In this document: piece by piece, positions 7,382-51,927 of the stretch
How the letters are laid out: each line of letters opens with the position of its first letter
Numbering within the stretch: the first letter of the stretch is position 1
Origin: Cyanidioschyzon merolae
Lineage: Eukaryota
Strand: one strand, 5' to 3'
DNA length: 64,000 bases
Assembly (NCBI GenBank): GCA_000091205.1
Contig: AP006494.2
Translations under genes and position numbers: made by a program
Notes under the pieces: model-generated
What the model saw: only the letters and a program-made list of their open reading frames with translations
Told to the model about the DNA's origin: nothing
Database searches by the model: none

Positions 7382-8057
7382 GACAGAACGCTTTCCTGTA
7401 GCCCAAAGCAGAAAACTTGGCCCTGTCGCTGCTGCTGCTGCCGTCGTCGTCGTCGCTGTTCAGGAGACTGCACAGCTCGCTTAGGTACCCGAGCAGTGGC
7501 GGACGCTTCCTCGAGCGCCGGTGTCGCCAAGTCGCCTCCTGCAATTGAGTTCCCCGCTATGCTTGGTATGTCAGACCCCCAGCTGATCTGACTGCAGGAG
7601 GAAAGCGACGTTGCCACACAGCGTGGCAGCCTGGGCACCTGTTTCCAAGCGATACCGCCGAGGGGCGTCACTACTGCAAGGTAGAGAGCGAGAAATATCT
7701 GGGGATGGGCGGGAGGCGGCTGGCGGCGACGTCTCCCGCCGCAGCTGCCGCTGCTGCTGTTGTAACGTGTGACCGTTGCGTTGGATGATCGACGCGCGCG
7801 CGCGCTGCGATCTGGGATTTTTTCTCAGATGACGAAAAGTGCCCAGTGATCAGGGATCCCAGATTGCGGGATGGGTAGGTATTCGTTATCGAAAAAGCGT
7901 CCATGATGCTTCACGATACCTCCAAGTTCCATTACTTGTGCCTCCGTTAGGATGCACTGGTCGTTTCGTACGTTCTATCGAGCGCTGAGTGTCTGCTTTG
8001 CTGCACCCTGCTGAAGCGTCTACACCGACAGAGCAGATGCTGCGCGGAGACAGCGCG

Positions 8058-8345
8058 GCGTTACTGTACCACTGATGACTTCGGCTCGAGGCGCGGTCCA
8101 TCTGATAAGGGATCAGGATTCATGATCATTCTGGGATCCAGCGATCTGCGTAGGCGTTGCTGTGCCACTGATGACTTCGGCTCGAGGCGCGGTCCATCTG
8201 ATAAGGGATCAGGATTCATGATCATTCTGGGATCCAGCGATCTGCGTAGGCGTTGCTGTGCCACTGATGACTTCGGCTCGAGGCGCGGTCCATCTGATAA
8301 GGGATCAGGATTCATGATCATTCTGGGATCCAGCGATCTGCGTAG
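8058..8345. repeat. Perfect or near-perfect tandem repeat, 96-bp unit x3, inside the 5' region of the long element (the paralogous copy at 50242-50337 has one unit)
   Basis: Direct reading: the unit gcgttgctgtgccactgatgacttcggctcgaggcgcggtccatctgataagggatcaggattcatgatcattctgggatccagcgatctgcgtag is repeated head-to-tail. Both strands stay ORF-open through the array only because the unit lacks stop codons. Confidence 0.9.
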
Positions 8346-9012
8346 ACAGACGCACTGGCTGCGGCAGCGCGAAGCGATATGCTACGAGATAATCGTCATA
8401 TTGGCGACGCCCAGACGCAGTCTAAGTGTACCTGGTCTCGGAATAAACCGCGTTGCCGACGAGTTACTCAGATCTCAATAGAGTACTAGGCACTGGGTGC
8501 AGCATGGAGCACCAGCCTGGCAGACTTGTCCGGCTCGCAGGACATTCCGCCTGGAAGGTAAACGTTCGAAAATATGGAAACATTTTCCCCCTTTGAACGT
8601 TTACCGTAGAGGGGAAAGAACATTTTATCCACTTGGTAGTTAGTCCTTGGTTTATGATCTTTTTTGTACATGGTGCGCTCGATATGCGCACACCCATATC
8701 TGGCAGGCATGCGACCTAGCATGTGCATCTCGCCGCTGAGGGGAAACGCGAACCTGATCATGAGCGTGTTGCTCTGACTTACAAGATGTATTTGCGTTCA
8801 AGGCACAAGAGAGTATGTTTTTCTCAGTTCAATTGTGTGTCAGCTCTCAAGTGAGTGTATTCGAGCGATTTTTCGCGGGTTGTAGCAGAAGCTTTCAAAG
8901 TGCGTTGTTTTGAAAAATAGTCGAGATAAATCGGGAAAAATATGGTTGTAGAAGTGGAGGATCCTGGAGGGCCCCGTATCGCCGGCTGCCGCAAAAAAAA
9001 AACCGAAGAACA

Positions 9013-10986
9013 GTGCCAACCAAAGAGGAACAACACAGGACCAGGAAGCAAGGCGGCGAGGGCCGACACCAAAACCTGCAGGGAAAACGACAGTACGACG
9101 AGATGGAAGTGAAAGCCTGTCTTTTACGCTGCGTCAAGGATCCGTGCAGGGAAAAGTTGCAAGAGGGCATCAGAAACCGTGTCGATTCGTACTCCAGGAG
9201 TATTGTAAAGGCCTGTTCAGGAATGATGCATGTGGTGAAGGTGATGTGTCGCGACGTGACGGACATCCAAACCGTCGAGGTTCCGGACGAGATTTTCGGC
9301 AAGACCTTCATTCGTCACCTGATGGTTGGAACAGGGGAAACGTCGAGGAGAAATGAGCGAGTTCGTGCCCTCCACGAAAATTACATCAAATACCGCTCCA
9401 ACGGTACTCGATACACGGGAGACTCGCGTATTTACGAATACGGGGCGATCAAGTACCTCACGAACCTGAAGAACCACGTGACCATGAACCTCAAAGGCTT
9501 CATGATACGCTCCGTCTTTGCCCTCGACCTGGAGCTGTCTCGCATAGGGATACGGGCCATCATCGACGGCATCAAGAACGATAGTCGGAATGAACAGGAG
9601 ATCGAATTTGCCGACAAGAAGACATCAAGCAGAGGAAAGAATGAACCTTCTGGAATCCCTGCGGCTATTCAGGAGCACCGTGCAGACTTGGGGCTTGTCA
9701 ACCCCGCGGATAAAGTATCAGAGATGAAAAAGATGACGAAAGATTTTATCCCCGCGTCCAGCGCTATTCCGTGTTTTTGGAGCGAGAACTCGAACGCCAG
9801 GCGGAGATGGAGCTCACTAGGGGAATACGTGAAGATTCGGAGAAGCGGAAGGCTTTCGTAATGGGTAAGCGCTTCAACGTCATTCCATTATGCAACAGCA
9901 AGTAGCACTTTGTGCGAATCGACGCTAGCGTCCTTCATGGCATCACGGGGGAGATGTGTCCGGAGTTCAGTTTTTTCAGGAAGGAGTTCGCCGGCGAAAA
10001 CCCGGAATCGTACTGGAAGAGTATCTTCGATTTCAAATGTCAGAATACAAGCAAAGAAAGATGTATACGGGGAATATCGAAAGAGATGGGATTCTGATGA
10101 ATGTGCACTACGGGTGCTTGATGGCGGATCTTCCTATTCTGTCTTTGTCGGTGCCTTTGACGGAGCATGAGAAGGACAAGGAGGTCGGTCCACGACGCAG
10201 GAGGTGCAGGAGAACGACTTTGTCGTCGGCGTGTGATACCGGGAACACGAATATCGTGACCATCGCTGCACCCAATTTTGCGGAAGATGGCATCGACGGT
10301 AACTTACGTCAGAGAGACATGCGTCTTTTAAAGCTCTCGAGAGCGAGATATTACCGAGACTCGGGAAAAATGAATGCAAGGAAACAAATTGTGACGTGGA
10401 ATGCTGGAGTGAAAGAGCACCTGGAAGCGGTCAGCCAGGTGACTAGTCGTCGAGCGGACCGCTGAGCATTTCTGGAATTCATGAAAAGTTGCGTTGCTCA
10501 TCAAGAGGAGCTGTGGAAAGAGTACACCAAGCCCCGGTGGGTTCGTCAGCATATAACTTTTGTACTGTGGAAAACAACCTGCATTCGCGAACTTTCTTAA
10601 TCAGTTGAGCGCCCTCATAGAGGACAAGAGTCGAAGGCTTGTAGTAGCATACGTTGCAGGTCGCTGAGCCTCCAAAACCAGGGAGCATATCTGCTCCATC
10701 GACAAGAGCGTACACGTAGTGCGCACATCGTTCCGTTACAGTACCGACAGATGAGTTCTGAGCGTCCTACATACACCATGAGCTGGGATGTACACTTCAG
10801 AGGGTCGAGATGGCGAAAAGCCAGCGGAGTCTTGAGGATATAGAAAGGTACGGAGAGCTTGCAGAACAGGAAATTGCACAGAGGGCACGAGCACGAGGAC
10901 TTGTCGCACTGCTTCGTACCACTTGTGGCAAGAAACGCATGAAGTTCGTGAACCGTGACTTTAACGCCGTTATCAAGATCCGATGA
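9013..10986 (+). pseudogene. TnpB/Fanzor-like RuvC nuclease gene, disrupted. N-terminal ORF 9013-9861 (likely start MEVKA at 9103), middle ORF 9956-10465 with RuvC-I-like SSACDTGNTNIVTIA near 10229-10270, C-terminal ORF 10810-10986 ending KKRMKFVNRDFNAVIKIR-stop. Frame changes could be introns or frameshifts
   Basis: The N-terminus MEVKACLLRCVKDPCREKLQ...RVDSYSRSI mirrors the TnpB start pattern (M.KAYK.RLYP..EQ...RFVYN). ACDTGNTNIV matches GIDLGIKNxAT (RuvC-I). RDFNAVIKI matches (D/N)RDxNAAxNI (RuvC-III). An in-frame TGA lies 3 codons after the motif, where the 36-kb copy has Cys. Confidence 0.45.
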
Positions 10987-12130
10987 TTTGCGGCGCTGGA
11001 GAGGAGACCCGAGCAGCTGACGCCATCTAACTTTGTCGGGAAACCGCTCCGGGTCGAGATGAATAAGGAGAAAGTGAAGCCAGTAGTTGGCGACCGGTCG
11101 ACAAAGACTGGGAGCTGTCTCCTTATCGATGGATTGACATCCAGTCTATGGCGGGCGGCGCGCCGCTCGCCACTATTGGACCCCGCTTATGTAGCGTACG
11201 CCGCTCGGAAGGCATGTCGTTGTTACCGGTGCGACGGATGCGTTGATGCTGGCTCTGCTGGGGCAATGCAGCTGGTGCTTGAAGCACTGCGGGTGCGCTC
11301 GTTGATGCGCTGCTGCTTTGATCCTCGGGCGACTCGTCTCGACGGCTGCGTACGACCGGACGACGCTGATGCTGATGCTGATGCTGATGGCGTACGATCG
11401 CGAGCGAAACTGTTTCTATGTGCATAGTGAGGGCGTATTCGATGTCAGAAACAGACTGGGTCACGTTTCCGGTACACTGGTCATGCGGATCATCAGAATG
11501 CTGTTACCAGTGGCATTGGAAATGCGATGATGCGCTTGCATCCGCGTCTGAACACAATGTGGGCTTTCGCGAGCTCCCCCGGACTGCATGCGACGCGTGA
11601 GCACGCATCGCGCACCGATCGCCACAGCTGTTTGCGCGTTTGTGGAACAGCAGCTGCCTTGGCGCTCCGACTTGTCGCTGAAGCACCTCATTGCGATTCG
11701 GTGGCAACGCAGATCCATTGCAGGCGTCAGCATCCGTCCCTGGGCAATGTCCAGGTTGCAGGTACGCGATCCATGCTTCAGCAATATGCACAAAACATAA
11801 TGATAGCCTCGTGACGCTTGCAGAGCAAACGTCGTCCGAGTCCCTTGTTTGGGCTGATGCACATGAACCAGAGATCCCGGGTTGCGCGATGGACGCTGTT
11901 TTCTTGCACTGACGGCAACTTTCGGGAAATCGCCCTAGATCCGGGTACTCCCCAGTCCAGTAGGGCGCCGCAGCGTATCGAGCAGCGCACGCTCTAGGTG
12001 GACACCATGGCAATGTCCAAAATAATCCATTTTATACTGATTTACCTCCGGATCACTCGTGGACGGTACGTAGCGCCTGCCGCGATCCGGCCCGCAGCGC
12101 TTTGTCCATCCTGAACTGTTTCGTCCGCGA

Positions 12131-12733
12131 GTGCTTCTATTTTTGTTGACGAAGACGCAGAATGCCCCGTGCTCGATGGGTTTGATTTTCCATGTAGTGG
12201 TCCTCATCGCTGAGGGTATCTCGTTGGCGTTTCTAGGTTTTTCTCTTTTGGTAGGTATTCAGGCGCTCACTGGTCTCGCGGAGGAGTTCCCAACTTCGTC
12301 CAAGCGACTGTTACGGGCGCTGGCACTGCTCGTGTTGCTTCTGCAAGTGCTACTCCTTGCGATCGACGGCCTTCCTCCTGTGCCAGTGGCGGTTGGCTGC
12401 CTCGCGCACTACACCTACTATTTATGGACTTGGAAGGACAACTTTGTTCGTGTGCGCGTGCGGCAGCTCCTGTTGATCAGCACTGTTGTACTGTTTCTCG
12501 TGTCCAACGTAGTGTGGGCGCAAACGTTATGGCACTTTTACGACCCGTGGATATACAGCCATCGTATGACAAGCGATGTGGCAAGTTGGCGCGAGGGTTT
12601 GCTGGCGCGGAACACGTTTACTGCCGCACACATCATGTTTATTTGCGTCTGGCTCTTGCCACTAAGTCTGCTCCTGGTCTTTGGAAGCAGAGAGCGCGAT
12701 GCAGAAAATAGTTTTGCACGCGACCAATCATGA
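12131..12733 (+). CDS. TEX261/Erv26/Svp26-family multipass membrane protein (ER export adaptor-like), about 200 aa; start may be the internal Met
   Basis: About 4 predicted TM helices. GLAEEFPTSSKRLLRALALLVLLLQ resembles the TEX261 segment [22 protein letters not shown]. Size and topology fit. Confidence 0.45.
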   Translation: MLLFLLTKTQNAPCSMGLIFHVVVLIAEGISLAFLGFSLLVGIQALTGLAEEFPTSSKRLLRALALLVLLLQVLLLAIDGLPPVPVAVGCLAHYTYYLWTWKDNFVRVRVRQLLLISTVVLFLVSNVVWAQTLWHFYDPWIYSHRMTSDVASWREGLLARNTFTAAHIMFICVWLLPLSLLLVFGSRERDAENSFARDQS

Positions 12734-13101
12734 ATGGCTAGTCTCCTGGCTCCATAGACGCATCGTGCGTGTTGTCAGCGATGCTGCGGGGCGTCTGGAC
12801 GGGAGCGGGCTGCTTGCGTGGTTGCGCGTGGGCGCTGGCGACCCGCCGCAAGACCTGCATGATGCCAGGCACTGGTCTGGATGTTGTGAGCTGCAGGCAC
12901 CGAAGCGAGTGTACGCAGACGGGTAATCGTCAAAGACGCAGCGCCGGGGCGGTTGCCCAGAGCGGATGTGTTGCCGTCTGCTGCAGCCGCTGGGGTATGC
13001 GCATCTCTTCTGGCAAGTTTCGATGATGCACATTGACTACGGATATTTATTCGGATTGCGGGACGGTTTCGATGCATACAGAACGACCGAATCCTAGCTA
13101 G

Positions 13102-19678: not shown

Positions 19679-19943
19679 CCAGTGCTAACCTGCCAACCTT
19701 TCTATTCTGAATATGACAGAGACAGGGAGTTTTCCGTGTCACCAGTACCAGCAGCCGTGGCTAGGGACCCGCGTGTACCCCGGGCGGGCAACAGTTCTCG
19801 CAAGCTTCGCCACAGCGCATGCTCGCTCGACAGCGGCATGCGGTTTTGTTGGGACACAGCAAGCACCGGGTTGCTGTTGCAGGTTGCAGGGCTAGAACGC
19901 CCGATGCTATCCGGAGCGCGTTTTCCGCACGGGTTAAGATGAG

Positions 19944-28360: not shown

Positions 28361-28599
28361 AGCGTGCTGCTATACAGAAATCTTTCCTACTGAATCCAGC
28401 CCTGCTGCCTGGTACCTCCTTGATCAGGCACCTTGCTTGTCCAGACCAGAGCCAGTATTGCACGTGGAGAAGCGCCGCTGCCTGCGCATGAGCGGCAGCG
28501 TGTCACCGGGATCAAGAGTCGCATTGGGGAAGTTGTCGTATTTCACTTTTGTACCAGCCCCGCTGCTGGGGTGTATAGAACGAGATCGAAATCACGATG

Positions 28600-33550: not shown

Positions 33551-33764
33551 CGATGCTTCCGTTTTTACCAGCTCCGTGCCAAAAACTTCCCCAGAACAAT
33601 AAAGGTGTGATCACTCTGACGACTTGCTGAGAACCGCGCCCCTTGCAGGCGCTCGGCGATGCTTCCGTTTTTACCAGCTCCGTGCCAAAAACTTCCCCAG
33701 AACCATAAAGGTGTGATCACTCTGACGACTTGCTGAGAACCGCGCCCCTTGCAGGCGCTCGGCG
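33551..33764. repeat. Tandem duplication, about 107-bp unit x2, in the 3' flank of the AGC kinase gene
   Basis: gatgcttccgtttttaccagctccgtgccaaaaacttccccagaac[a/c]ataaaggtgtgatcactctgacgacttgctgagaaccgcgccccttgcaggcgctcggcg occurs twice head-to-tail with 1 mismatch. Confidence 0.85.
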
Positions 33765-35929
33765 CTGCGCTAGCTGTGCAGTCGCCGTCGACATACCGTA
33801 AGAGGAAGGCGTGGCCATGCCTACACGGGCTGCGCTTCCAGTCTCATCGCCGCGGTACCAGCATGACCTCGTCAACGGCACCGTTGCTACCGAGCGCGCT
33901 CAACGTCATCTCAGCGCTTTCTATGAGTGCACCAAGACAGAGCGGCAGCGATAGGCAATGAGACGGACCTTTCCATGAGGTACAGCACACGGTGCTGTGC
34001 TGCGCGTGGCCTGCATGCTCCCCAAAGACATAACTGGACAGAGGGTTTTTAGCGGCGCCAAGGTACAGCAAAGCACAGCAAAACGAGGCAAGGTACGGCT
34101 CTGTTGCAATGATGCCGAGCGAGCCGCGAAACGCGCTGGGAACGGTACAGTAGGCAAGCGGCGCGCGTGCTCCCCTATGCCCTAGTTATCGTAAAGTAGA
34201 ACACTGAAGTACTCGCTGTGTTCCCGCTTTTCAATTTTTCCAGAGTTGGTCTAGAAATACGGCATAGAAACTCGAAGTTCAGGAATGAATTCGAATGGAC
34301 GACTATGCAAATGTAGAATTCTTGAATGTTTTCTCGGAGTATTGTGTACGATGCTTTGCCACCGGAATTTGTTACGTAATCGTCATGATTCGCGTCGCAC
34401 TCGAACCCGGATTCGTAAAGTAACCGATATCGTTATGCGATGCTTGCGTACTAGCGTCGACTCATGTCCTGGCTGTAGGTGCAGCATGCCCAAATCAAGC
34501 ATTGTATGGAATTCGATCCTTCTGTTGCAAGGCCACTCGAGGCTGAAGCATCTTGCGCCGCCTAGTAGACGAGAAAAGCGAAAATGCTCGACTTCTTCTG
34601 TGAGCGACTTTATGACCTACTCATGCTGATAGCGTACTGAACGTCTCATGCCGAATACTCGATTCTGCTCGAAATACAAACGCTTTACACTGTCTGGTTA
34701 TTGATGAAATCGGAAATGAGCGCAGTATAACCATGCCTCTCACAGGGTATGTCGGTTGGGATCGTCTGTCTTCGGTTTGCACGGAAAATGGTCTTCGAAT
34801 TGCAGTTCAGTGAGCCTAGCGGTCAGTGGCTGTAGAGCGTGCATGTCGCTTCGCCTGAAACGAGCCTAAACGAATCGGAACTCCTCGACTTGATGTCTAA
34901 CCTGAATTTTCCTTACGATATGTGTTTAATCATGGATAACATCGTGTTCCATAAATCCTCTATCGAACGGAAATGCGCACACTTTCGCATATGCAGCGGA
35001 CCGGGCACCTGCCTTGGGGATCGCCTCGAAGAAGTCCTTGATCGTAGGACGCGGCACTCTGTGCGGATACAGAGGAAAACAGCGCTGGGAGCCTTGCGTT
35101 CACGTCAACCGCATGTACCGAGCGATGAAGCGCGCTGTCGTGCGACTCTGGGCGGCGCTCGGAGCCGCAGAAGGTCTAGTGCATCCCTGGGAGCACTTGA
35201 TCGCAGTCACTTGTCACCGCTGGAAAGCGCGCATGGAGACCGTCTGCATAGTAGGCGAAACAGGTGAACGAAACCTGGATCAGAACTTTTGCCTGTGCGA
35301 GGAACCCCCAGAGAACAACCGGAAGCGGCGGAAACGGGCTTTCATGCTGCGATCAGTATCCACGACTGATTCCAACAGAATTTGCGGGATAGGTAGGACC
35401 GGCGTATTCGAAGCGCGAGACAAGGGAGAGGAAAATGAACCGGTCGCAGAAAAAGCTTGCCATGGCTGGTGTTGATGACAATGCTGAGCGAGCCATACGT
35501 CAGTGTGTGTGTGTGTGCGCTCGTGCTATGTGAGAGCGCCCGTCCCACGGTATTCCGACATGAGTGTACGGCATGCAGGACGATACCGGAATGTTTTTTT
35601 CTGCGGTGAGAGGTCGACGCATCGATCCAGGGATCTGTAGCGAGTGCGATGCTCCTGCGTATCGATCGATGCAAACAGTGCGCGGGCCCAGTGCCCCCAG
35701 TGCTCTACGAACCATAGACCAGACTTCACTTTGTGAATAATGGTTTGTTCGCACGACCTTCCCAAGTATAGGTCCTACTGTGAGTGTCTAGAATGGCGCT
35801 AGTCGTAGCAGCAGCACTGCGGGCCGCTGAATGCAGACAGATCGGTTTCACGAGTCCCCGTCTGGCGCCCGCTCGAACGTCGATTCTCATCAGGGAAACG
35901 GATCACTACGGGCGCTATGAGATCGGCCT

Positions 35930-37350
35930 CAGAAGTTTTTGTCTTTCAACTCAGTTTCGTGGCAAGTCTGCTGCGGTGTGCAGTAGGCGGTTGAAATCTC
36001 CATGGAATGTACTGTACCGATCGTAGACGAATCGCCAATAGAATATGTTGTTTGCTGAACAGTGCACGGAGGGTTTCATTTCTCCATCGGATCAGTGATA
36101 CCACAATACCCATATGGTTGAGGAACACTGAACGAAGCAAGTACACGTGGTCTGCATTAAAACAACCGATATTCTCGAAGACTGCGACCTGTTAGTGGTA
36201 TAAACCAACCCACCGGACACGTTCCGGAAAGCGAAATGAACAATAGTAGGCAGCACGGGCGCCGCTTTTCTCAATTGCCTGTTCGCGTGATCCTGAAAAC
36301 ACTGGGATGCAGTCGGAATAAACTTCTGGTTCACGAACGGACATCTTCCACCAAAATCGGAACGAGAGCGTTCTCAGAATGTCGCGGTCGGTATGAAGCA
36401 GAGCATCATCGGTTTGTTTTACCGGTCGATGAGACTCGCTTCGGAAAAAGACGGTCCGAGCGTATATGGGTATTCGTGGCGGGGGCGCCCCCTTCTATGT
36501 ACAATCAAATTCGATGAGGACGATGACATCAACTGTCCTAGATGTAGTGGATTCTAGTGGCGGCCGCAGTTTCGCTCGTAGGCAAGGCTCACACAACAGC
36601 ATCTACATGCTTAAATCATTGAAGACATTTGCCTCTGACGTTTGATCACGTTCGTCCATTGGATATCGAGGCATCTCACTCTTCGCTTTACGTAACTGCA
36701 TTTGCTGCGCGTGCCGGAGGTAGAGCCGGTCTTTTCTTCCCTGTACGCCTAGTGCCTTAACTCCATCGACGGAGCGTTTCCATCGTGAAACGTAATGATC
36801 GCTCTAGTAGGCGAATCGTTGAAGCGTACATCACACGGTGACACGTTGACACATACCGTCTTTTACCAGCAAGTGCTTCTCCCTTTAGGATGGTTCTCAC
36901 CCAGGCACATAAATAAGTGCGTTCATTTTAGAAAAATAAGGGATGAGCTCGGACGTACATTTCAAAAGGTCGAGTTTGAGCAGAGGCAGTGGAGCGCTTC
37001 GGCTATAGAAAACTACGAAGCGCTGACCGAAGAGCAAATGGAAAGGAGGGCGAAAGCTCGTGGATTGCTTGCACCAGTGAGTACAACGAATGATGGCAAG
37101 AAACGTATGGAGTTCGTGAACCGAGACTTTAACGCCGCCATCAATATCAGGAGATGTGCCGTGGTGGAGCATAGACCTCCAGAGTGGACAAGAAGGTGTT
37201 TTGTTGGACAACCTCCCAAAGTCGAACTATATGAGAAAAAATTTGAAGCAGTAGAAGGTGGCCTGTCCCAAAAGACTGCAAGGCATCTGCACGTCAGTTG
37301 GCTACGTTTCCTCCAAGGCGCGTTGCCGCTACTACTGTGCACCGCTGGCG
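35930..37350 (+). mobile_element. Short copy of the TnpB/Fanzor-like element family with the best-preserved 3' module (ORF 36795-37436 carries intact RuvC-III KKRMEFVNRDFNAAINIRRCAV at 37122-37148); 5' part has an HTH-like ORF (36007-36195) and a middle ORF (36236-36517) in different frames
   Basis: RDFNAAINI exactly fits the TnpB/Fanzor RuvC-III consensus. The 5' end aligns with the 62.9 kb and 28.6 kb copies. The 3' end aligns with 10.8-11.2 kb of the long copy. It abuts the ChaN-like gene start. Confidence 0.45.
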
Positions 37351-37365
37351 ACGTTCGACTTTTGA

Positions 37366-38781
37366 ATGGCTATTGGCTGCATGGAGCAAACTCGAAAACG
37401 ACGGCGGACGGGATGTTTTCATACCCTCGGCTTTGACTGGAGACAAGCGCTCGCGACTGCCTTTATGCCACCAGAACCACGAGGCTTTTCCGCAGCCGCG
37501 TGCCAACGCGCAACACGTTGGCAGACGGTACAGCCTCGAGCTCGTCGACGGACGCTTTCAGAGCGTCGGCTACAAATGCTATACGTCAGCCGTCGAGAGT
37601 TTCTGTGGCAACTCGCAGCGGGCGCGGCAACGCTGGGCTTTCACAGTGTGAAAAAACCTGTGGCGCCAGCGGCTTCAAACTCGGCACCACCGGCGCCCGT
37701 GAATGGGCGCTTGGCACCACTGGGTGCTATCTTCGACACGATGATCGGCTCTTTTCTACCACCGCGACCTGAGCGACTCTTATCGAGGCGAATTCGGCAT
37801 AAAGGAGCACGCTCTGTTCTCTTGGTCGGGGAGACACACACGGACCGACAACACCATCGGGTGCAACTGGCGTTGCTGGACTCGTTTGTGAAGCATGTTC
37901 GAGGTCAGCGGAATGAGTCGATTGCAGGAGCTCCAATTGCGATCGGCATGGAGCATTTCTATCGGCAGCATCAAGTGCATCTGGATCGGTACATTGCGGG
38001 CAAGATTGAGCTACGACAGTTACTCGCTATTACTCGTTTCGAACTTACCTTTGGGTATAGCGCGCAACTTTGGCAGGATATTTTGGAGTATGCACGGGAA
38101 AACCGTATTCAGGTTGTTGGTCTCAATACTCCGTTCGAATTGGTGCAGCTGGTTGCCCACTACGGCCTGGATCACTTACCAGAACGTTTGTATGAAGTGC
38201 TTCCTCGCGATATGGATGTGCATGGTAATGCTGCACACCGTGAGCGTTTTATTCAGAGGATGAAAGCGTTGGGGGTGGAAGCGCATGGTCCACTCATTAA
38301 CGACGAGGCAGCACTGCAGCGAATGTATGAATCGCAGGTGCTCTGGGACGAATACATGAGCGAATCGGCGGCCTTGTGGCTAGAGCGGAACCCCCGCGGT
38401 CACTTGTGTATTTTTGCGGGTAATGGTCACGTCGAAGGCCGTGTTGGGATTCCAGACCGCCTGACTCGTCGTTCTGGGAGGCCGACCTTCACCGTCGTGC
38501 CGTATACGGTGCCGTTCCAATCAGACGGCTGGCCCGATATACCGCATCCCGGCAACAGAGATGTCGGAGATTGGCTCTGGTACCTGCCTGTAGGATCTGG
38601 GGGTGCCGAATCTGACGAATCGGACCCCAAGTCGCAGCGACAGCAACGGTTCGGGGAGCGTTTCGGCTATCGAATCGCACGCAGTACCGAGTCCGACATG
38701 AGACTGATGGGGCGAGGCGCAGCCAGAACCATTCAGAGAGGTACGCAGACGAAATCTGTGGACGAGCCGGACTGGGTATGA
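37366..38781 (+). CDS. ChaN/DUF399 (Tiki-superfamily, haem-binding-uptake-like) protein, 471 aa, with N-terminal R-rich extension followed by a twin-arginine motif; true start may be an internal Met (37465 or 37579)
   Basis: VLLVGETHTDRQHH and FAGNGHVEGRVGIP match the two GxxH signature blocks of the ChaN/Tiki fold. SRREFLWQLAAGAATLGF is a textbook Tat (S/T-R-R-x-F-L) signal. Confidence 0.55.
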   Translation: MAIGCMEQTRKRRRTGCFHTLGFDWRQALATAFMPPEPRGFSAAACQRATRWQTVQPRARRRTLSERRLQMLYVSRREFLWQLAAGAATLGFHSVKKPVAPAASNSAPPAPVNGRLAPLGAIFDTMIGSFLPPRPERLLSRRIRHKGARSVLLVGETHTDRQHHRVQLALLDSFVKHVRGQRNESIAGAPIAIGMEHFYRQHQVHLDRYIAGKIELRQLLAITRFELTFGYSAQLWQDILEYARENRIQVVGLNTPFELVQLVAHYGLDHLPERLYEVLPRDMDVHGNAAHRERFIQRMKALGVEAHGPLINDEAALQRMYESQVLWDEYMSESAALWLERNPRGHLCIFAGNGHVEGRVGIPDRLTRRSGRPTFTVVPYTVPFQSDGWPDIPHPGNRDVGDWLWYLPVGSGGAESDESDPKSQRQQRFGERFGYRIARSTESDMRLMGRGAARTIQRGTQTKSVDEPDWV

Positions 38782-41688: not shown

Positions 41689-44600
41689 CTACAGTCCAGA
41701 ACGCGACGTCTGTGACGCACTGTCCGAGCTCGACGCCACCGGGTGACGCCTGCTGGGGACGCTACTGCTCCGACCGCTGGTGGCGCTTCGTGCTCGACTA
41801 ACTCGAGCCATGTCGAGGTTCATCGCCTCGAGACTGTCCAGATTACGAAAGGAGAAATCGGAAAAAGCGGGATCTGCCAAGGTAAGCACGCATTGCGATT
41901 CACTCGATGAGGGTCTGTTTGCCTTGTAGCGTGCTCGTCGGCCAGATTTGGCAAGGTTCACATTCGGATCGCTATAACTCGCTTCTGGTGGCCTTTCCGA
42001 AGACGAAACCCCAGCGCTCGCCTGAACTGGTGCGCTGCCCTCGCGTCCTATATTGGAACGCGCTAGCGTAGCTCGTCGAAAAGGATCCACGGCGTTGTTG
42101 TTGTTGTTGTTGAAATCGTCGTCGTCGTCGTCGTCGTCGTCGTTCTCGATATCGCCCTCACTACACAGGTTCGAGTCGCTACTTGAATCTTCGAATAAAA
42201 GCATACCGTCGCTGGTATTCCAAACATTGCGCGTGGGTGTTGTTGCCGCAACAACTGCTACGCTCGTCGCGTCGCTACCACGCAAACGCACATTGGATGA
42301 ACGTAGAACGCTTGGACTGGTGCATACCGATGCCGATCGTTCTCGATTCTGTTCATCGGCGGACGTGCTGACCGACGGATCCCGTTCTGTTTCCGAAAGC
42401 CAGCCGCGTGTAGGCGCTCGTCGACGCAAACAATGCTGCAAGAGCTGCTCCCGGGAGCGTTGCCGTCGATTGCGTAGGGTCCGCATGTCGACGCGTCGCC
42501 ACCCTGTTTCCGTCGAGCAAGTCGCAGACGATGACCAGCTCGGTACTTCCGTCTGTTTCCAGTCCATTTCCGGATGCGAAGTTTCCGACTGAGTTCCAGC
42601 TGGCTCCGAAGGCATCGCCGAAGCCGCTGCACCAGTGTTCCCCGAGACTCCCACGGCATGAGGCGAATCCGGTACCGCGACGATTTGCGTCGCTCTACCC
42701 AAAGCGCCGTCGGAGTCAGTGCTTACGTCGCCTGTTCCTGCTATCGACGTCGCCTCTGAGAGCGTCTCCTGCCCCTGAGTGCGCGTCGTGTGAGCGATGG
42801 AGCAATCGGCGGATATCCGTTGCGTCTTGTCTGCATCGAGCTCATGCTCGGGTACCGTGTACGAGAGAGACCATCCCGGGCGGTGCCGATAGAGCCCGTC
42901 AGCGCATGGCGCATCTCGGACCTGATCCTCAATGCCTTCTGCCGAATCTGTTGCCTGGCTCGATGTTGTGATGCCGCTCACCACGATCTGGTCGCTTAGG
43001 GACGAGTTCTCCGCGTTCACTGCATGCAGCAACCGCTGCGGCATAGTTTCCGCTCCCGAACGGGACAAAGGCTCCATGGATACCCCTGCAAGCGCCGTAC
43101 CATCGCTCCAGCGACACGCTCGCTCTGCAACCAATACCGACTCGTTGTGTTCGCATGTCGTATCTATAGCACTTTGCTCTCGGACAGACGATGAAGATAA
43201 TACAGGGCGCTCGGCATCATGTGAAACGGCAGGCAAAGCCGGGATCCCCAGATCGAGCGCTCCCGATGCAGCACACGGCGACGAGCGCGGTGCCGGCTCT
43301 CGTATGCCGCCAGGCGCCGCTGGTGCTCTGGAGACACCGTAGCAGCACGCGCTGCTCGAGGTCGCAAGTGGCTCTGTGGAACAAACTTTCCCATATGTAG
43401 AACAGTGCATGCCGCACGCCGCAGTGCCCTCATCGGCGCTACGCCAGTCGCCATCCGTGGGATTTTCCCGCGGCCAGCAATCCGCCGTAGCGCACCAGCG
43501 CATCATGACCTTCTGTCCACCCTGTCGCATTTCAAGATGCGCTGCTACGTCACTCCAGCGAGGCTCCGAAGCGTGCACAGACTGTCCACCCTGTCGCATT
43601 TCAGGATGCGCTGCTACGTCACTCCAGCGAGGCTCCGAAGCGTGCAGAGCCTCGGATGACGCGATCGCTGCGGTGCGTGTCTCGGGGACACGCATCCGTG
43701 ACGACGACGACAACGACAACGGCACGGACGCAACATGCGACTTCGAGGCCGTCACCAGCAACGGCAATGCTTCTGCTCGTTCTACGTCGCCCAGGCCGTG
43801 CTCGCTAAGCGTTCTCATTAGTTTCTGGGTGCTCTCGTCGTCAGGAGAGAGCGATCCGACCGCTTTGCGCGACGAAAAGTAGCTGGTGTCATCGGCGGCA
43901 GCAAACTGGGGTACGAAAGCCGGTGGCTGATTCCTTACATGCTCAAAATCAACATCGCGGAAAAAGGGATGGGCTTTCACCTCTGCTGCACCACGAGCAC
44001 CCAGTCTTTTGGAGGGATCCGGCTCCAAAAGACGCTGAATGAGGTCACGTGCCTCGGCACTCATGGCCTCATCGACATCGTCAGGCCACTGGATTCGACC
44101 CGACAATATGTTCGAGAAGATGCCACGCACAGAGCTCGCGTGAAAGGCAGGGATGCCCACGAGGAGCTCAAAGAGGACAACACCGAGAGCCCACCAGTCC
44201 ACAGCGAAACCGTGACCCGTTCCCAGCAGCAGCTCGGGAGCCAAATAGTCGGGAGTGCCCAGCGGCGGCTCCACAGGTGCGACCACCGTGGTGCCGCCAA
44301 CCGGGCTACCCGATTGACTCTCGGTTGCCAACGTCTGAGGTGACGGAGAACGGACACCTCTGACTCCATTCGCCCACAAGTGCCCTGTGTGGCTCTCAAA
44401 CGGACCGGCATACCCAGATCCGCCAGTGCTCGCAGCAGCCGAAAACTGACCGCGTGCATCCGACGCTGTTAGGGTGTTTTGTCGCCCGGCTGTGCGTGTG
44501 CCAGCTTGTACGGAACTCGTGGTCGTGTCCACAAGACGCATATCCACGTCACGCTGCAGGGGTACTGTGGACGAGCCTCGCTGGGTCCTGACCTCGGAAC

Positions 44601-47600
44601 CCGATCCAGACATCACGCTGACGCTCATGGAATCCATGCACAACTGACTGGAGGGTACTCCCGATGCTCCATGCATCTGTTGAGGACCAGTACCGGCACC
44701 AGCAATCGCTCCCGCACCAACCGATGTATCATACCGCGGCTTAGTTGCACCGGAGATGGCGCTCAAACCACTGACCGGTGCCTTGGCGGAGCGAGCAACG
44801 AACCCCGCCGGTGATAGTGCCCGTTGCCACAGGGTGTCGGTGCCCGGCGACAGGCTCGCTCTCGTGCTCGCAGGACTGCTGTGCGGAAGATCCAATGCCC
44901 CCTGTTTGCTTAGACCAAAGTCGGTCAATTTGATATGTCCATCCCGATCGATGAGAATGTTATCCGGCTTGAGATCACGGTGAACGATACCCGCTTGATG
45001 CAGATATTCCAAAGCGAGTACGATTTCGGCTACGTATTGTCGAGCAACATCTTCATCGAGATAGCCGAGATTGCTCAAGAGCGAGAAAAGGTCACCCCCG
45101 GGCAGAAACTCCATCACCAGAAACAATTTGCGTGCCGACTCGAACGACCAAATAAAGCGGACTACAAACGGGTTCTGGATGGTTGCCAGAATATCCCTTT
45201 CTGCACGCACGCGTCGAACGAGGTTTTTGCGCACGAGTTCGGACTTTTGAAACACCTTGATTGCGTAGAGATCACCAGTGGTTTTCTTGGACGCCAAATA
45301 CACTCTTCCGAATGCCCCGCGAGAGATTGGCTTAAGAATGTCAAAGTCGCGAATACTGGGTACCGCCGGATGCAGATGCGGACTCGCACCCACTCGTAGC
45401 GACTGCCGGGACGGGGACACTTCAGCGCCCCCGGAAGACCGCAAGCGACTCGAAGACGAATCCGAGCGATGCTGACCCTGCTTCCGACTTTGACTCGCGC
45501 CGTGCGCTTCACAAAGTGCATCCTGGAGATGATGACGACGACGACGACGGCGACTCGAACCGGTATCGGAGGAGTGCGCTGCTTCCGCAAACGCGACACC
45601 AGTGTCGGTCTTCGCCGCGTTGCCGAAGCGGATGTCGCCACCGCGATGTACATCCTCAGAGACGAGGCCACGCTCAGCATCGCATGGAGAGGCGGAATCG
45701 GCTGCATCACGTGTTTTCCAGTGAACGTGATCACAAGGCTCAACCGTAGCAGCAGCAGCAGCAGCAGCAGCGATATCGCAATTACGAGCGCTATCATCAT
45801 CAACAACAGCACCGGCACTGGCACCGGCACCGGCATGATCATCATCCGCGGCAGCGTCTTCGCTTGTGCGGCAGGAGACATCCTCCGCTGGGCGGGCTCT
45901 GCGAAGATCACTGGTCAATGCTCCCGACTCGAGGCTGCCGTCGTCAGCGGCGACAATGGCAGGTTCAAACACTGCCGGTATCATGGAAAGCGCTTCAAGC
46001 TTTTGGCTCACCAGGCAGTGTGCTCGTTCGACCAGTGCCAGACACCAGCGAGAAATCGTCGAACTAGTCGTATTGGCAGTCGCTGCCTGGCAGGCTTGCA
46101 GGGCGTGTTCCAACCGAGAACGAACGGCTTCCAGTTTCGCGCGTGCAACATTCTCCTCTAGATTCGGACGAAAGCTTGCCATATCTGAATCCGTTCGCAG
46201 ACGTAAACAAGAGCGAACTTGCTCATAGCTCTGATTCTCGAGATCATCCAGGTCAGCGGGGACAAAGCTGCTGATTCTCGTGCAACTCTCCGACGGCTCA
46301 ACTGCTGCGGCGTAGAGGCAGAGTTTTGCCACGCGCGATAGCAGCGCCTGCTGCGCACTGTCCACAGAAGCAGTAGACACGTCGCCCGCGGGTGCTTCGG
46401 TGAACGCTGAAGAGGTCGCTGCGCGAGCCCCGTGTCGTCCCAGTTTCTCGAGCTGCTTATCGCAGGCAGCAATGAGCACCGCTGCACGCGCTCGCGCTGC
46501 ACAGCATTTGGTGTGCTCCTCGAAGATCTCACACGGGTAGACTTCCTCACAGATGCGGCAAATGAGATAGGCATACGGATCCGTGACTTCTTCGTTTTCT
46601 TCCACGGCGTCCGCGTCCTTCTCGATTGCCTCTTCGTCTTCGTTGGAAATGAATTCCGCTCCAGAACACGGGGATGGCGGCATCGCGGTTTGTAGTGAAA
46701 CTGGGGTTTGTGAGCGAGCCGCAGGTAGCTGGATCAGTTTCGCGGTGGTGTTCTCTGGTCGGTGCAAGCCGCCAGCGTCGGCTTCTGTTGTTCGCACTTT
46801 CGCTAGCTCATTGGTTTCGTTGTTGTTGTTGTTGTTGTTGGTGTTGTTTTCTGCTGCGGGCGCTCCTTTTTCAGATAGGTTAGAGACGTCGAATGGCCCA
46901 TGGACTCGGAGCGAAAGGTTTCCCTCACGACCAGTGGTTTGCAGCGCTCTCATCGCTCGGACTGGATGCACATGAATCGCCTCATTCCGGGCAGCTAGCG
47001 CGACCGTATCAGAGCTGTAGCCTCGCTGAGCTTGTGTCTTACCAGTCAGCAGGGTCGCAAGTACCCCAGCAGGCAGCGATGGACGCTCGGCGGGCGTGGA
47101 ACGCTGCGTCGCCTCCGAAGCTGCTGCTTGCAACCCGGGGGCGTTGCTGCTCCCCGAGTGTACCAGAGTCTGCGAAGAACTCGGTTCTGTCAAGCGTTGC
47201 GTGTGACGCGACTTGTCGTCGTCGTCGTCGTCGTCGGGTTCAGCGCGCAGTTGCGTCGTGTCTGCTTCCGACTTTTCTAGATGCGTCGCAGGCGCCAGCA
47301 CTGCGATTCTATTGGGGTCTCGTTCGACTCCCAGACGCATCGTAGTCGCTTGAGCAACGCCTTGTGCTCCTGTCTCGCGTGCATGTTGTCGTGGACGTAT
47401 GCTCGTAAATAAATGCACATCTGAATTCGCCAAGTTCGGTGGCGAGCGCGGCCTCGTTTCCATGGATGACAGGCATACCGAGGAAACACAACGACGCGGC
47501 GGAAACGTCCAAGCATCTCGTGCAACCGCTATCGAAGGCTGCGGTTTGGCCCAAGGCGCCGGTTCATGAACACGTGCTGCAGCATTCGAGTCTTCCAGTG

Positions 47601-49599
47601 CGCGCTGCGCTTCCGATGTAGGTTCCGTTCGCTCGTAATACGCTGCAGCATACGAGTCTTCCACTGCGCGCTGTGCTCCTGCTGCAGGTTCAGCGACATG
47701 GTTGCTCAGGCTCGACTTGAGCGATATCCGGCCTGCCGCTACTGTAGCAGTTGACAGCTGCGTGCCCGGCTCTATAAAACGCTCATCCGCGGTTCCCGAT
47801 GACCACGACGAGGCATGAGCAGCGTCAGCCGGATCTATGTGCTCCGAACCGAAACCCTTCCCAGTCGACTGAGACATTCGCGTTCGGCGGGTGCCGCTCC
47901 CGCGCTGGCTGTTGCTCTCCGCCCGAAATTCAATGCGCTCAGCGGCTGCTTCGAGGAAACGCGTCAGCCTCGATAGCGTGAAGAGGAGGTGAATCACCGG
48001 CGAGGAGCGATGCGTCCACGAGACAAAGCTTACATGCATCCGCATTCGTTGCAGTTCATTCACGTACTCATGCAGATTGCCGCTGAATGCTATTACGGTT
48101 GAATGGCCCCGTGATACAAACGTTTCCGCCAATAACGCATCAGCGGACGTTGCCAACACGGCGGATGCAATATCCATCATACGGCGAACAGCTTTGCTGA
48201 GCTCGGGTGTCTCCTGCCCCTGCTGAAGTTCTGCTTCGCATTGTGCCATAAACTGCGCCAGCTCGTGATCAGTCTCCTTCTTGATCGCCTGTAACCGTCC
48301 ACGGATAGTTGACACGTTACCAGAGACAGCAAAATAACCCAAAGCACCCGCTAATAAGGCAGAATACGCATTGCCCCCCGAGGCGGCCGCAGTTGCAGGT
48401 GCCGCACCGGTGCCGATCGGGCTCGCCCATGACGCTGTGCGGTGTAGGCGTCTTGTAGTGCGTCGTCCCGCTTGTGTATGGCCCTCCATAAGACGCACCT
48501 GGTGCCACTGGAGCGTCGGCGTTGTAGCCTGGTCCGATGGACCGAGCCATCCGGTGCCGGCAGTGGACCACGATGTTGCCGCAACGCCGCCAGCGCCGAT
48601 CATTCGCCTCCAAGCGGATGCCACTGGGATTTCCCATCGATTTTGCGGCACTTTTTCATGCTCTTGCCGATGATGATAATGGTACTGATGGTGCTGATGA
48701 GCATCATGCTCGCTCTCACGATATTGTCGTCGGTGCGAATACCGATAGCGTAGGCGATGCGGGTCGCATCCCGCCAGTGACGTTGACTCGGGTGGCTCCA
48801 TCCGAAGGAGCATCACGTCTTGGTTGCTGCGCAGTTCGGTCGGAAGCGATGCACTCACGATGTGAGCGTCAGCGGGCTCAGAGTCGCTACTGGGCGCTTC
48901 GCAGCGTGCATCACTCACCAGTAATCGCTGTGACTTGGCAAACGCCTCCGATCGACGTCTTTCCCCAGAGGCTTTGCGTCGTTCGATCCGGGTAGTCTGA
49001 TCGCTCATCCGTGCCCTTCCAGTAGACTCCGCTTCGTCATCATCATCATCATCATCATCACCGTCACCATCGTGATCAGCCAGTTGTTGCAGCCGAGCGA
49101 AAACGGGAACGTCTCCGGTCGCCGCTGGGAACCCATCCGCTTCAACCGCTGCCTGCAGTGCTGCCACGTTGTCAACGCTTACAGGAGTCGAGCTCGCGTG
49201 CTTTATTGTCTCGTTAGAGAGCATCCAACTATCTTCGCGGCTTTCGGCGCCAGCGAGATAACCTTCCAAGCCGCTCGAGTCTGAGCTCCAGCCCGAGTTC
49301 CGTCTGAGGTCGAGCGCGTAGCGCTCCGCCAAGAGCTGCGCTGTTGTCTGTGGTCGTTCAACTGGAACGCTTACACCGACAGCGGTCAGCGCGCTCTGTA
49401 GCGACTGAACCTGGCGCTCGGTGGCGGCATCGCTTACCGGGTCAGCGACAGGCACGTCGCTTGCCTGCGCACCTGTGTCTACGCAAGCGCACTCACTACC
49501 TGGGACGTGCACCGGCTCATCAACGTGCGCACGCTCGCTCTCGTTCGCACCTGCTCGCATCCAAAGACGCGATGACGTCCACGATCGCAGGTTCCACAC
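41689..49599 (-). CDS. Giant (2636 aa) Greatwall/Rim15/MAST-like AGC kinase: central kinase domain with a roughly 270-aa insertion between DFG and GTPDYLAPE, an AGC C-tail, an N-terminal Cys-cluster and extensive low-complexity regions
   Basis: [22 protein letters not shown]...[14 protein letters not shown]...[26 protein letters not shown]...[long insert]...[39 protein letters not shown]...[12 protein letters not shown]. The activation-segment insert is the Greatwall/Rim15 hallmark. Confidence 0.75.
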
Positions 49600-49993
49600 A
49601 AAATAGTGACAGCAAGCACCTGCTCACGGCTTTTCGTACGGTGTGGCCGCCGCAGAAGCCCCGCTCGCCGGCGATGGCAACACACCGGAAACGACACTGG
49701 CCCCCGTGTTTCTCTGGAGTGCTGCTGCTGAGACCCCAATGGGTTCACAGCCAATACCAGCTGTTACAGCGTCCGCGTATTCGGTGTTCGCTGTCTCGAG
49801 CTGGCAGCGCAGTGCGCGAGGAGTACCAGATGGGCCCGTTTCAAGCTGCCCTGCGAGTGCCACGACGGTATTGTCCAGGTTGTCGTGAGGCACTGGGATG
49901 GACAGATTGGGAAATGGGACAGATTTGCCATCTGAGTGACTGCGGCGGCGGCGGCGGCGGCGGCGGGATCTCGACTTTGCGCATCGATCTGCG

Positions 49994-51927
49994 ATCTGGG
50001 ATTTTTTCTCAGATGTCAAAAAGTGCCCAGTGATCAGGGATCCCAGATTGCGGGATGGGTAGGTATTCGTTATCGAAAAAGCGTCCATGATGCTTCACGA
50101 TACCTCCAAGTTCCATTACTTGTGCTTCCGCTAGGATGCACTGGTCGTTTCGTACGTTCTATCGAGCGCTAAGTGTCTGCTTTGCTGCACCCTGCTGAAG
50201 CGTCTACACCGACAGAGCAGATGCTGCGCGGAGACAGCGCGGCGTTGCTGTACCACTGATGACTTCGGCTCGAGGCGCGGTCCATCTGATAAGGGATCAG
50301 GATTCATGATCATTCTGGGATCCAGCGATCTGCGTAGACAGACGCACTGGCTGCGGCAGCGCGAAGCGATATGCTACGAGATAATCGTCATATTGGCGAC
50401 GCCCAGACGCAGTCTAAGTGTACCTGGTCTCGGAATAAACCGCGTTGCCGACGAGTTACTCAGATCTCAATAGAGTACTAGGCACTGGGTGCAGCATGGA
50501 GCACCAGCCTGGCAGACTTGTCCGGCTCGCAGGACATTCCGCCTGGAAGGTAAACGTTCGAAATATGGAAACATTTCCCCCCTTTGAACGTTTACCGTAG
50601 AGGGGAAAGAACATTTTATCCAGTTGGTAGTTAGTCCTTGGTTTATGATCCGTTTTGTACATGGTGCGCTCGAGATGCGCACACCCATATCTGGCAGGCA
50701 TGCGACCTAGCATGTGCATCTCGCCGCTGAGGGGAAACGCGAACCTGATCATGAGCGTATTGCTCTGACTAACAAGATGTATTTGCGTTCAAGGCACAAG
50801 AGAGTATGTTTTTCTCAGTTCAATTGTGTGTCAGCTCTCAAGTGAGTGTATTCGAGCGATTTTTCGCGGGTTGTAGCAGAAGCTTTCAAAGTGCGTTGTT
50901 TTGAAAAATAGTCGAGATAAATCGGGAAAAATATGGTTGTAGAAGTGGAGGATCCTGGAGGGCCCCGTATCGCCGGCTGCCGCAAAAAAAAACCGAAGAA
51001 CAGTGCCAACCAAAGAGGAACAACACAGGACCAGGAAGCAAGGCGGCGAGGGCCGACACCAAAACCTGCAGGGAAAACGACAGTACGACGAGATGGAAGT
51101 GAAAGCCTGTCTTTTACGCTGCGTCAAGGATCCGTGCAGGGCAAAGTTGCAAGAGGGCATCAGAAACCGTGTCGATTCGTACTCCAGGAGTATTGGAAAG
51201 GCCTGTTCAGGAATGATGCATGTGGTGAAGGTGATGTGTCGCGACGTGACGGACATCCAAACCGTCGAGGTTCCGGACGAGATTTTCGGCAAGACCTTCA
51301 TTCGTCACCTGATGGTTGGAACAGGGGAAACGTCGAGGAGAAATGAGCGAGTTCGTGCCCTCCACGAAAATTACACCAAATACCGCTCCAACGATACTCG
51401 ATACACGGGAGACTCGCGTATTTACGAATACGGGGCGATCAAGTACCTCACGAACCTGAAGAACCACGTGACCATGAACCTCAAAGGCTTCATGATACGC
51501 TCCGTCTTTGCCCTCGACCCGGAGCTGTCTCGCATAGGGATACGGGCCATCATCGACGGCATCAAGAACGATAGTCGGAATGAACAGGAGATCGAATTTG
51601 CCGACAAGAAGACATCACGCAGAGGAAAGAATGAACCTTCTGGAATCCCTGCGGCTATTCAGGAGCACCGTGCAGACTCGGGGCTTGTCAACCCAGCGGA
51701 TAAAGTATCAGAGATGAAAAAGATGACGAAAGATTTTATCCCCGCGTCCAGCGCTATTCCGTGTTTTTGGAGCGAGAACTCGAACGCCAGGCGGAGATGG
51801 AGCTCACTAGGGGAATACGTGAAGATTCGGAGAAGCGGAAGGCTTTCGTAATGGGTAAGCGCTTCAACGTCATTCCATTATGCAACAGCAAGTAGCACTT
51901 TGTGCGAATCGACGCTAGCGTCCTTGA
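49994..51927 (+). mobile_element. Second, 3'-truncated copy of the long TnpB/Fanzor-like element: 5' region (one 96-bp unit, same hairpin) plus intact N-terminal ORF 51003-51851; lacks the RuvC-bearing part
   Basis: About 98% nucleotide identity to 7806-9936. The 282-aa ORF differs from its paralogue at 6 residues. Similarity stops abruptly at 51927. Confidence 0.6.

Follow-up and report, generated by a model that had tools for sequence, protein, structure and literature searches.

Two near-identical copies of a Fanzor1 repeat on Cyanidioschyzon merolae chromosome 12, probably related by recent partial copying

Two direct repeats bracket a gene block of about 40 kb in a 64,000-nucleotide stretch of Cyanidioschyzon merolae DNA (contig AP006494.2 of assembly GCA_000091205.1; this whole stretch is called the window, and positions refer to it unless a contig is named). 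Their near-identity raises the question of what the repeats are, how they came to be so alike and whether they form a unit with the genes between them. From their identity and anatomy it is close to certain that both are copies of the Fanzor1 repeat CMe-1A (copy 1 on the left, copy 2 on the right), situated in two different divergent intergenic regions of chromosome 12. The explanation that fits best overall, and which we regard as quite probable, is that of two CMe-1A copies related by recent partial copying.

Self-BLAST and a repeat finder, both run over the window, place the direct-orientation pair at 7805–9935 and 49989–51925, with 98.3–98.9% identity. The alignment consists of two same-orientation parts, 7805–8153 against 49989–50337 (349 bp, 98.3% identity) and 8249–9935 against 50241–51925 (1687 bp, 98.9% identity, 16 mismatches and 2 gaps), and identity drops off abruptly at 9935/51925. 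The first-pass annotation had described two near-identical copies of the 5′ half of an element in the same orientation, and its coordinates prove accurate to within 1–5 bp. The shared segment measures 2131 bp in copy 1 and 1937 bp in copy 2, the sole large difference being a 96-bp unit that occurs in triplicate in copy 1 but singly in copy 2. This unit, triplicated in copy 1 of strain 10D, is single in every metagenome contig (L016, L031–L034), so that either its copy number is truly polymorphic or short-read assemblers have collapsed the tandem repeat.

CMe-1A has been described as a C. merolae Fanzor1 element with a Repbase consensus of 3169 bp, in which a single Fanzor1 open reading frame (ORF) lies behind a 5′ non-coding region of about 900 bp (Bao and Jurka, 2013; Mobile DNA 4:12; PMC3627910). 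The same study, which assigned CMe-1 to Fanzor1, reports roughly 150 copies, each sharing about 80% identity with the consensus and some still with intact ORFs; it identifies the first 635 bp as a separate repeat, TE-N2_CMe, finds no terminal inverted repeats (TIRs), gives target-site duplications (TSDs) as undetermined and lists the class as unclassified, and the 5′ terminus of the family was never defined (Bao and Jurka, 2013). Using the consensus sequence from supplementary file 2 of that paper, consensus positions 2–3141 align to 7828–11187 in copy 1 (77–79% identity) and positions 2–1902 to 50012–51932 in copy 2 (80% identity). At the protein level, a tblastn search with the CMe-1 protein recovers residues 10/18–728 in copy 1, distributed over five frames, and residues 10–339 in copy 2, the N-terminal part of both copies being 72% identical to that protein. 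The stitched translation of copy 1 has 34 homologues in a database search, all of them metagenomic, and the motifs GADPGNT, VDEFRTS and FVNRDFNAAINI are conserved over the family alignment of these homologues.

A novel interspersed repeat of about 3.2 kb had earlier been reported from the C. merolae genome, which is finished from telomere to telomere (Nozaki et al., 2007; BMC Biol 5:28; PMC1955436). It is present in 253 copies distributed over every chromosome, accounts for about 5% of the genome, is transcribed and contains a truncated ORF weakly similar to WSV486 of white spot syndrome virus (Nozaki et al., 2007), a virus listed as a carrier of Fanzor1 (Bao and Jurka, 2013). Size, abundance and the link to this virus all point to the 253-copy repeat being CMe-1A. 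For this genome, the family, its abundance and its assignment to Fanzor1 have all been published, and the finding is in that sense largely ordinary. Two same-strand copies 42 kb apart are indeed to be expected, because the genome-wide density is about one copy per 65 kb and the window itself contains six family remnants, amounting to about 15% of the 64 kb. What is unusual is limited to the near-identity, or youth, of one partial duplicate.

Copy 1 is a full-length element (7805–11214) whose ORF starts at 8942. At least five frameshifts interrupt this ORF, as do several in-frame stops (TAG at 9903 being one of them), and the high-scoring segment pairs follow one another in the frame order 1, 3, 2, 3, 1. 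Remnants of the RuvC domain are recognizable as the D in CDTGNTN at 10232, the E in TDEF at 10747 and the D in VNRDFNAV at 10948, with stops and frameshifts between them. On the right, the family 3′ end “...TCGGAAGGCA” finishes at 11214, and five independent family copies lose similarity directly after “...CGAAAGGC(R)”, which defines a sharp right end. No inverted counterpart of the left end of copy 1 is present at its right end (no TIR), and the flanks have no duplication in common (no TSD). Identity to the consensus is uniform along the copy (77–87% per 300-bp window, 64% at the 3′ tip), and copy 1 is therefore an old, evenly decayed copy. A mosaic structure with a younger 5′ half was considered and rejected, since the divergence from the consensus is even along the copy.

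The 3′-terminal region of the family is conserved and decayed in copy 1. Its long-range stem (CAGTAGTGGGTGG / CCGCCACTACTG) comprises 31 predicted pairs, just three of which show compensatory changes, with a covariation term of about zero, and it overlaps the last codons of the ORF. The stem may be compatible with an omega-RNA scaffold, for which it is a tentative candidate. Counterparts of the region are found at 11085–11214 and 37246–37370 of the window and at 12292–12416 of contig L001; no Rfam match was found within 7300–12200.

Copy 2 stops at consensus position 1902, at about residue 333 of 734 and ahead of the first RuvC motif, so that the RuvC motifs are absent, in agreement with the earlier statement that the second copy is cut off before the RuvC region. 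Several lesions are shared with copy 1, namely an additional G near codon 10, a frameshift at 9690–9730 (corresponding to 51680–51720) and the TAG at 9903 (corresponding to 51893). In the one long ORF retained by both copies (282 codons), seven of the eight inter-copy differences are nonsynonymous, which fits neutral pseudogene drift. Judging by these lesions, neither copy is able to encode an active protein.

Fused to the truncated end of copy 2 lies an inverted 5′-end fragment of an older family member, a feature absent from the first-pass annotation. It is 69% identical to 7804–7975 in inverted orientation; consensus positions 8–144 align inverted to 52057–51926 with 79.7% identity, as close a match to this part of the consensus as that of any independent copy. 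Copy 2 was also considered as an internally deleted element with TIRs of about 170 bp, a structure that was rejected because no such right end exists in copy 1, in the L001 element or in the consensus. Solo 5′-end fragments without the rest of the element occur elsewhere in the family, at one locus recovered from four samples (L013, L014, L018 and L020; consensus 1–162) as well as in L019 and at 4023–4096 of L013 (consensus 84–345 and 6–79). In other family copies (L005, L007 and L001), similarity begins only at consensus position ~650. Copies that begin at ~650 support a modular build of the family.

The duplication, which by the reckoning of the first-pass annotation an assembly artefact could undo, is real. 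All four of its junctions are present in independent assemblies as well as in the finished reference genome (Nozaki et al., 2007), the independent assemblies being public ones, from metagenomes and the SRA, of strains that share about 99% identity with 10D. The left junction of copy 1 with the cyclin flank was recovered in 10 samples (L031–L040), and the copy 1-specific 3′ half is joined to the Erv26 gene in L002, L021–L024 and L028–L030. The left junction of copy 2 with the kinase flank is found in L017, and its right junction, through the inverted fragment and on to CML234C, in L015 and L012. Many contigs on the Erv26 side cross 11214 and break only at 9638–9862, that is 74–300 bp inside the shared segment, which indicates two copies of the 5′ half but one of the 3′ half in the sampled genomes.

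Where their identity begins bears on how the two copies became so alike. In the DNA preceding consensus position 1, the motifs GATCGAC, ATCTCGAC and ATCTCGGC together with a T-run recur in four independent family copies, and at both loci of the window these family motifs run about 25 nt to the left of the identity boundary, yet the two copies are unlike there. Sites combining motif and T-run at similar spacing lie at 7787–7826 and 49965–50010 of the window, at ~8390–8440 of L001 and at ~7520–7568 of L013. From the recurrence of these motifs, the 5′ end of the family appears to extend about 45 nt past the published consensus start, and 7787–7804 may not be flanking DNA but the outermost 5′ tip of the element in diverged form. 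Because family motifs continue beyond the boundary while the copies differ, the identity boundary is suggested to be internal to the element.

The two copies differ by about 1.1%, 10D and the sampled strains by 0.7–1.4%, and all sampled strains carry both copies. Since the divergence of the pair is similar to that of the strains, a single copying event shortly before the sampled strains diverged is indicated, with a template that was already dead, and we infer that copy 2 derives from one such recent event. This event would have been DNA-level copying from copy 1 rather than normal transposition: a break at locus 2, which would already have carried old family 5′-end fragments, may have been repaired by homology-directed or template-switch copying. 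This repair-templated route, by gene conversion or template switching, is the one favoured here, with middling confidence. Four observations favour a process other than transposition. Only the 5′ part was copied and the right junction is non-terminal; the template’s own ends are decayed; no further young copies are seen in the assemblies sampled; and family motifs continue to the left of a boundary beyond which the copies are unlike. The pair is about 20 times younger than the family and was made from a dead copy, a point relevant to the question of how Fanzor repeats are maintained when no transposase for them is known.

Several points weigh against repair-templated copying. No pre-existing plus-strand 5′ fragment can be demonstrated at locus 2. 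On the left, the 98.9% identity ends no more than about 25–45 nt from the family 5′ end, as a transposition-type event would give, and the argument for an internal boundary is built on short motifs in five sequences. In addition, some metagenome contigs contain sites at which both copies carry one strain-specific allele, which could reflect continuing gene conversion of two old insertions or collapsed assemblies.

Recent transposition is the strongest competitor, although we consider it doubtful. In this case, a member of a mobile CMe-1A subfamily would have been mobilised in trans, its own ORF being dead, and inserted at locus 2, followed by deletion of the 3′ 1.3 kb and part of the old fragment. 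In both copies, the high identity sets in 22 nt before the start of the Repbase consensus, near the 5′ end of the family, as would be expected of an insertion, and a source acting in trans could exist, given that some CMe-1A copies keep intact ORFs (Bao and Jurka, 2013) and that the family is transcribed (Nozaki et al., 2007). However, transposition needs two events, the termini of copy 1 are as decayed as the rest of it, and independent assemblies show just two copies of the shared 5′ half and one of the 3′ half. Moreover, about 25 nt further to the left carry family motifs but differ between the copies, and no TSD was found.

Less probable still is that two old, independent insertions have been kept alike by continuing ectopic gene conversion over the 1.9-kb tract. 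Such concerted evolution would account for about nine sites at which the 10D copies share one allele, whereas copy 1- and copy 2-anchored contigs of other samples share the other, and it would agree with identity boundaries that may be internal to the element. Short-read metagenome assemblies cannot, however, phase copies that are 99% identical, and the shared alleles may be collapse artefacts. To the right of consensus position 1902, locus 2 moreover has no older full-element continuation, the inverted 5′ fragment being found there instead, and a copy divergence (~1.1%) similar to that among strains (0.7–1.4%) requires no conversion.

A more specific version of repair-templated copying draws on the nuclease itself. 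TnpB and Fanzor nucleases have been proposed to preserve and spread their elements by break-induced, homology-directed copying. Copy 2 could accordingly be a footprint of such copying between Fanzor elements, a break in an old element fragment being mended from the copy 42 kb distant and having been made perhaps by a still-active Fanzor, but we consider this version improbable. The 18-mers that adjoin copy 1 and the 37-kb remnant on their right were searched as RNA guides, and no second match with up to three mismatches was found in the window; there is thus no sign of locus 2 as a guide target. If copy 2 were such a repair footprint, it would be repair, not transposition, that spreads dead CMe-1A copies in C. 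merolae and makes them alike.

Very unlikely, finally, is that the repeats and the enclosed 40 kb form a functional or mobile unit, whether as a composite transposon or a copy-number-regulated block, or that the 5′ module was co-opted as a regulator of the cyclin and kinase genes. The repeats do share one orientation, and their left ends lie at similar distances from the start codons of two cell-cycle genes. However, copy 2 lacks the 3′ end and no working protein is to be expected from either copy, while other remnants in the window lie 210–960 bp from unrelated gene starts. The block itself contains about 12–13 genes, as counted from the ORF list and the locus-tag span CML221C–CML234C, and not the 16 given by the first-pass annotation. 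They include Erv26, a CTLH/MAEA-like protein, Rab GDI, an aminotransferase, a metallophosphoesterase, a NUBPL-type P-loop NTPase and two kinases, and are ordinary single-copy housekeeping genes. Collinearity with Cyanidiococcus yangmingshanensis extends over 1024–27901, the part compared, which covers the left 20 kb of the block; in that alga, 1.8 kb free of CMe-1A sequence separates the neighbouring, divergent cyclin and Erv26 genes. This synteny without the element argues that the block is not cargo of a composite element, and we infer that the pair has no function as a unit.

The pair had also been proposed as a substrate for ectopic recombination. In principle this stands, 1.9-kb repeats at 98.9% identity being suitable, but no allele of this kind was seen: among more than 25 public contigs, there was no empty site, deletion, duplication or recombinant junction, and every contig with Erv26 or the cyclin gene also carries the element, apart from L025. 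The pair is therefore a potential substrate for a 42-kb deletion or duplication, of which the deletion would remove housekeeping genes from a haploid alga. In L025, positions 1–1078 join unrelated DNA (including a 281-aa ORF) at window position 12125, 51 bp upstream of the Erv26 start codon; this junction, seen in a single metagenome contig, represents a structural variant present in some strain, or else the contig is chimeric. The weakest explanation, a mis-joined or duplicated repeat in the reference, is hardly credible given the finished genome (Nozaki et al., 2007) and four junctions recovered independently in many samples, with nothing found in its favour.

The genes flanking the two copies and the other main features are listed in Table 1; the cyclin, the Erv26-family protein and the product of the ORF at 52488–54275 match annotated proteins of strain 10D exactly (CML220C, CML221C and CML234C). 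The left end of copy 1 lies 439 bp from the cyclin ATG (7366) and that of copy 2 429 bp from the kinase ATG (49560), in line with the distance of about 400 bp upstream of two minus-strand genes given earlier; on the other side, CML234C starts about 395 bp to the right of the inverted fragment. The shared promoter-proximal placement had been called notable, a judgement that does not hold against the background of the window, where about 33% of the intergenic positions outside transposable elements (TEs) are within 500 bp upstream of a gene start and divergent intergenic regions hold four of the five internal TE remnants. Both copies had further been described as lying in simple-sequence DNA. 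Short arrays do precede them, namely (GCCGCAGCT)2 at 7738–7757 and (GC)6 at ~7794–7805 for copy 1 and (GCG)8 at 49942–49966 for copy 2. The association is nevertheless weak, since the arrays are short (20–25 bp), the 64-kb window contains about 45 microsatellite arrays, and simple repeats are missing upstream of three further 5′ ends from independent family members (L001, the L013 locus and the inverted fragment). Placement near promoters and simple repeats looks like survivorship in a compact haploid genome rather than targeting. Two further tandem duplications, both 98% identical, were seen in the window: one of 69 bp in the kinase ORF (43513–43646), which doubles 23 residues in frame, and one of 106 bp (33551–33768) in the intergenic region downstream of the kinase gene at 30240–33278.

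Table 1. Coordinates of the repeat copies, associated remnants and neighbouring genes in the window.
Feature	Position	Strand	Consensus positions, basis or remarks
Copy 1, segment shared with copy 2	7805..9935	+	consensus ~-22 to 1902; ~1.1 kb 5′ non-coding module and N-terminal 45% of Fanzor1 ORF
Copy 1, Fanzor1 (TnpB-like) pseudogene	8942..11127	+	six-frame translation; tblastn with family proteins and CMe-1 consensus protein
Copy 1-only 3′ half: RuvC half of ORF and 3′ terminus	9936..11214	+	consensus alignment reaches position 3141 at 11187
Conserved 3′-terminal region, candidate omega-RNA scaffold, decayed in copy 1	11085..11214	+	predicted long-range stem CAGTAGTGGGTGG / CCGCCACTACTG in consensus
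96-bp tandem unit, 3 copies	8057..8345	+	consensus positions 222–318; single counterpart 50241–50337
GATCGAC motif and (GC)6, directly left of copy 1 high-identity boundary	7787..7804	+	motif recurrence
Copy 2, 3′-truncated duplicate	49989..51925	+	consensus ~-22 to 1902
GGGATCTCGAC motif and 14-nt spacer, directly left of copy 2 high-identity boundary	49965..49988	+	counterpart of 7787–7804, unlike in sequence
Inverted 5′-end fragment of older CMe-1A/TE-N2_CMe-like member	51926..~52092	-	consensus ~-45 to 144; outer motif at 52085–52092
DDE_3 (Tc1/mariner-IS630-like) remnant upstream of Fanzor fragment	28570–29677	+	Fanzor fragment: consensus 2762–3078
DDE_3 remnant upstream of Fanzor fragment	35973–37370	+	Fanzor fragment: consensus 2737–3168
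DDE_3 remnant upstream of Fanzor fragment	62880–61826	-	Fanzor fragment: consensus 869–968
CYME_CML220C, “similar to cyclin E2”	6173..7366	-	Cyclin_N and Cyclin_C domains; exact match to BAM80812.1
CYME_CML221C, Erv26 family	12176..12733	+	exact match; divergent neighbour of cyclin, copy 1 in shared intergenic region
2623-aa protein kinase, split kinase domain (Greatwall/Rim15-like)	41689..49560	-	Pkinase matched in 2 stretches
CYME_CML234C, hypothetical protein	52488..54275	+	100% identity over 595 aa; divergent neighbour of kinase

Compared with known systems, the pair is closest to CMe-1A itself. Copy 1 covers nearly the whole consensus at an identity typical of the family (77–79% over positions 2–3141) and likewise has neither TIRs nor a recognizable TSD. 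It differs from the published description in that the two copies are 98.9% alike, far above the family norm, that copy 2 consists of a 5′ half joined to an inverted 5′ fragment, and that both copies reach at least 22 nt, and probably about 45 nt, past the published 5′ end of the consensus. From the 253-copy repeat there is no material difference, except that the window is richer than average in this family. The inverted fragment at 51926–52092 resembles TE-N2_CMe in matching the 5′ module alone, as do the solo metagenome fragments, an assignment made on the published statement that TE-N2_CMe equals consensus positions 1–635. In contrast to a composite transposon, copy 2 has no 3′ end, both ORFs are dead and the enclosed genes are housekeeping genes collinear with those of Cyanidiococcus (over 1024–27901).

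The likeness to Fanzor1 and TnpB proteins lies in the C-terminal half of the family, where the RuvC order D...E...RD is kept, remnants of it being found in copy 1 only. The family belongs to a clade that differs in having no C4 zinc finger between the [TS][TS] and RD motifs, the region reading TSYTHHELGC...EKC...LLALVSTT with no CxxC...CxxC. The canonical zinc finger is missing across the whole Cyanidiales Fanzor clade, as seen in two family alignments (window 10760–10950). No Pfam hit, including the OrfB_Zn_ribbon and TnpB models, was obtained for the ORFs of the window elements or for intact homologues, and neither single-protein nor profile searches gave a PDB sequence match. A low-confidence AlphaFold model of the family protein P0020 (predicted local distance difference test score, pLDDT, 51; predicted template modelling score, pTM, 0.40) was compared with known structures using Foldseek. 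All six hits at E<=1e-5 (4e-8 to 9e-6) were Fanzor structures (GtFz, SpuFz and PpFz), the next hit having E=0.7, but TM-scores were only about 0.2. With respect to the experimentally characterised Fanzors SpuFz1, GtFz1 and PpFz (Saito et al., 2023; PDB 8GKH, 9CER, 9CF1), the predicted conserved 3′ stem is situated here at the position of the omega-RNA. No RNA-guided activity is expected from either copy, both being pseudogenes.

Elements of the Tc1/mariner type that carry Fanzor1 are known, for example PUl-1 of Pythium (Bao and Jurka, 2013). A distant intact relative of the family protein, P0020 (699 aa, 33% identity), likewise lies downstream of a DDE_3 transposase in metagenome contigs L008–L011. 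This unit of P0020 and DDE_3 is 3.6 kb long with 30-nt inverted repeats (TATACTCTGTATAC...) and is complete on contigs in four samples, the contigs L008–L011 having a GC content of 46–48%. The pair differs in that no DDE_3 similarity is present in 7805–11214 or 49989–52092, and neither a TIR nor a TA duplication was found; such Tc1/mariner features are confined to the distant relatives in L008–L011 and, in part, to other remnants of the window. A Fanzor C-terminal fragment was also noted at 17–778 (+), with about 33% amino acid identity to family proteins, downstream of a WD40 gene at 1967–5023. The 3′ end of CMe-1A (“GCGGTGTGCAGTAGGCGG”) and the left ends of the DDE_3 remnants were also compared as a candidate TIR, which was rejected as not significant (local score 24, shuffle maximum 26). 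Three DDE_3 remnants in the window lie directly upstream of CMe-1A-type Fanzor fragments (Table 1), which suggests that the unclassified CMe-1A Fanzor module may once have been carried in a mariner-like element, and these abutting remnants may help to classify CMe-1A.

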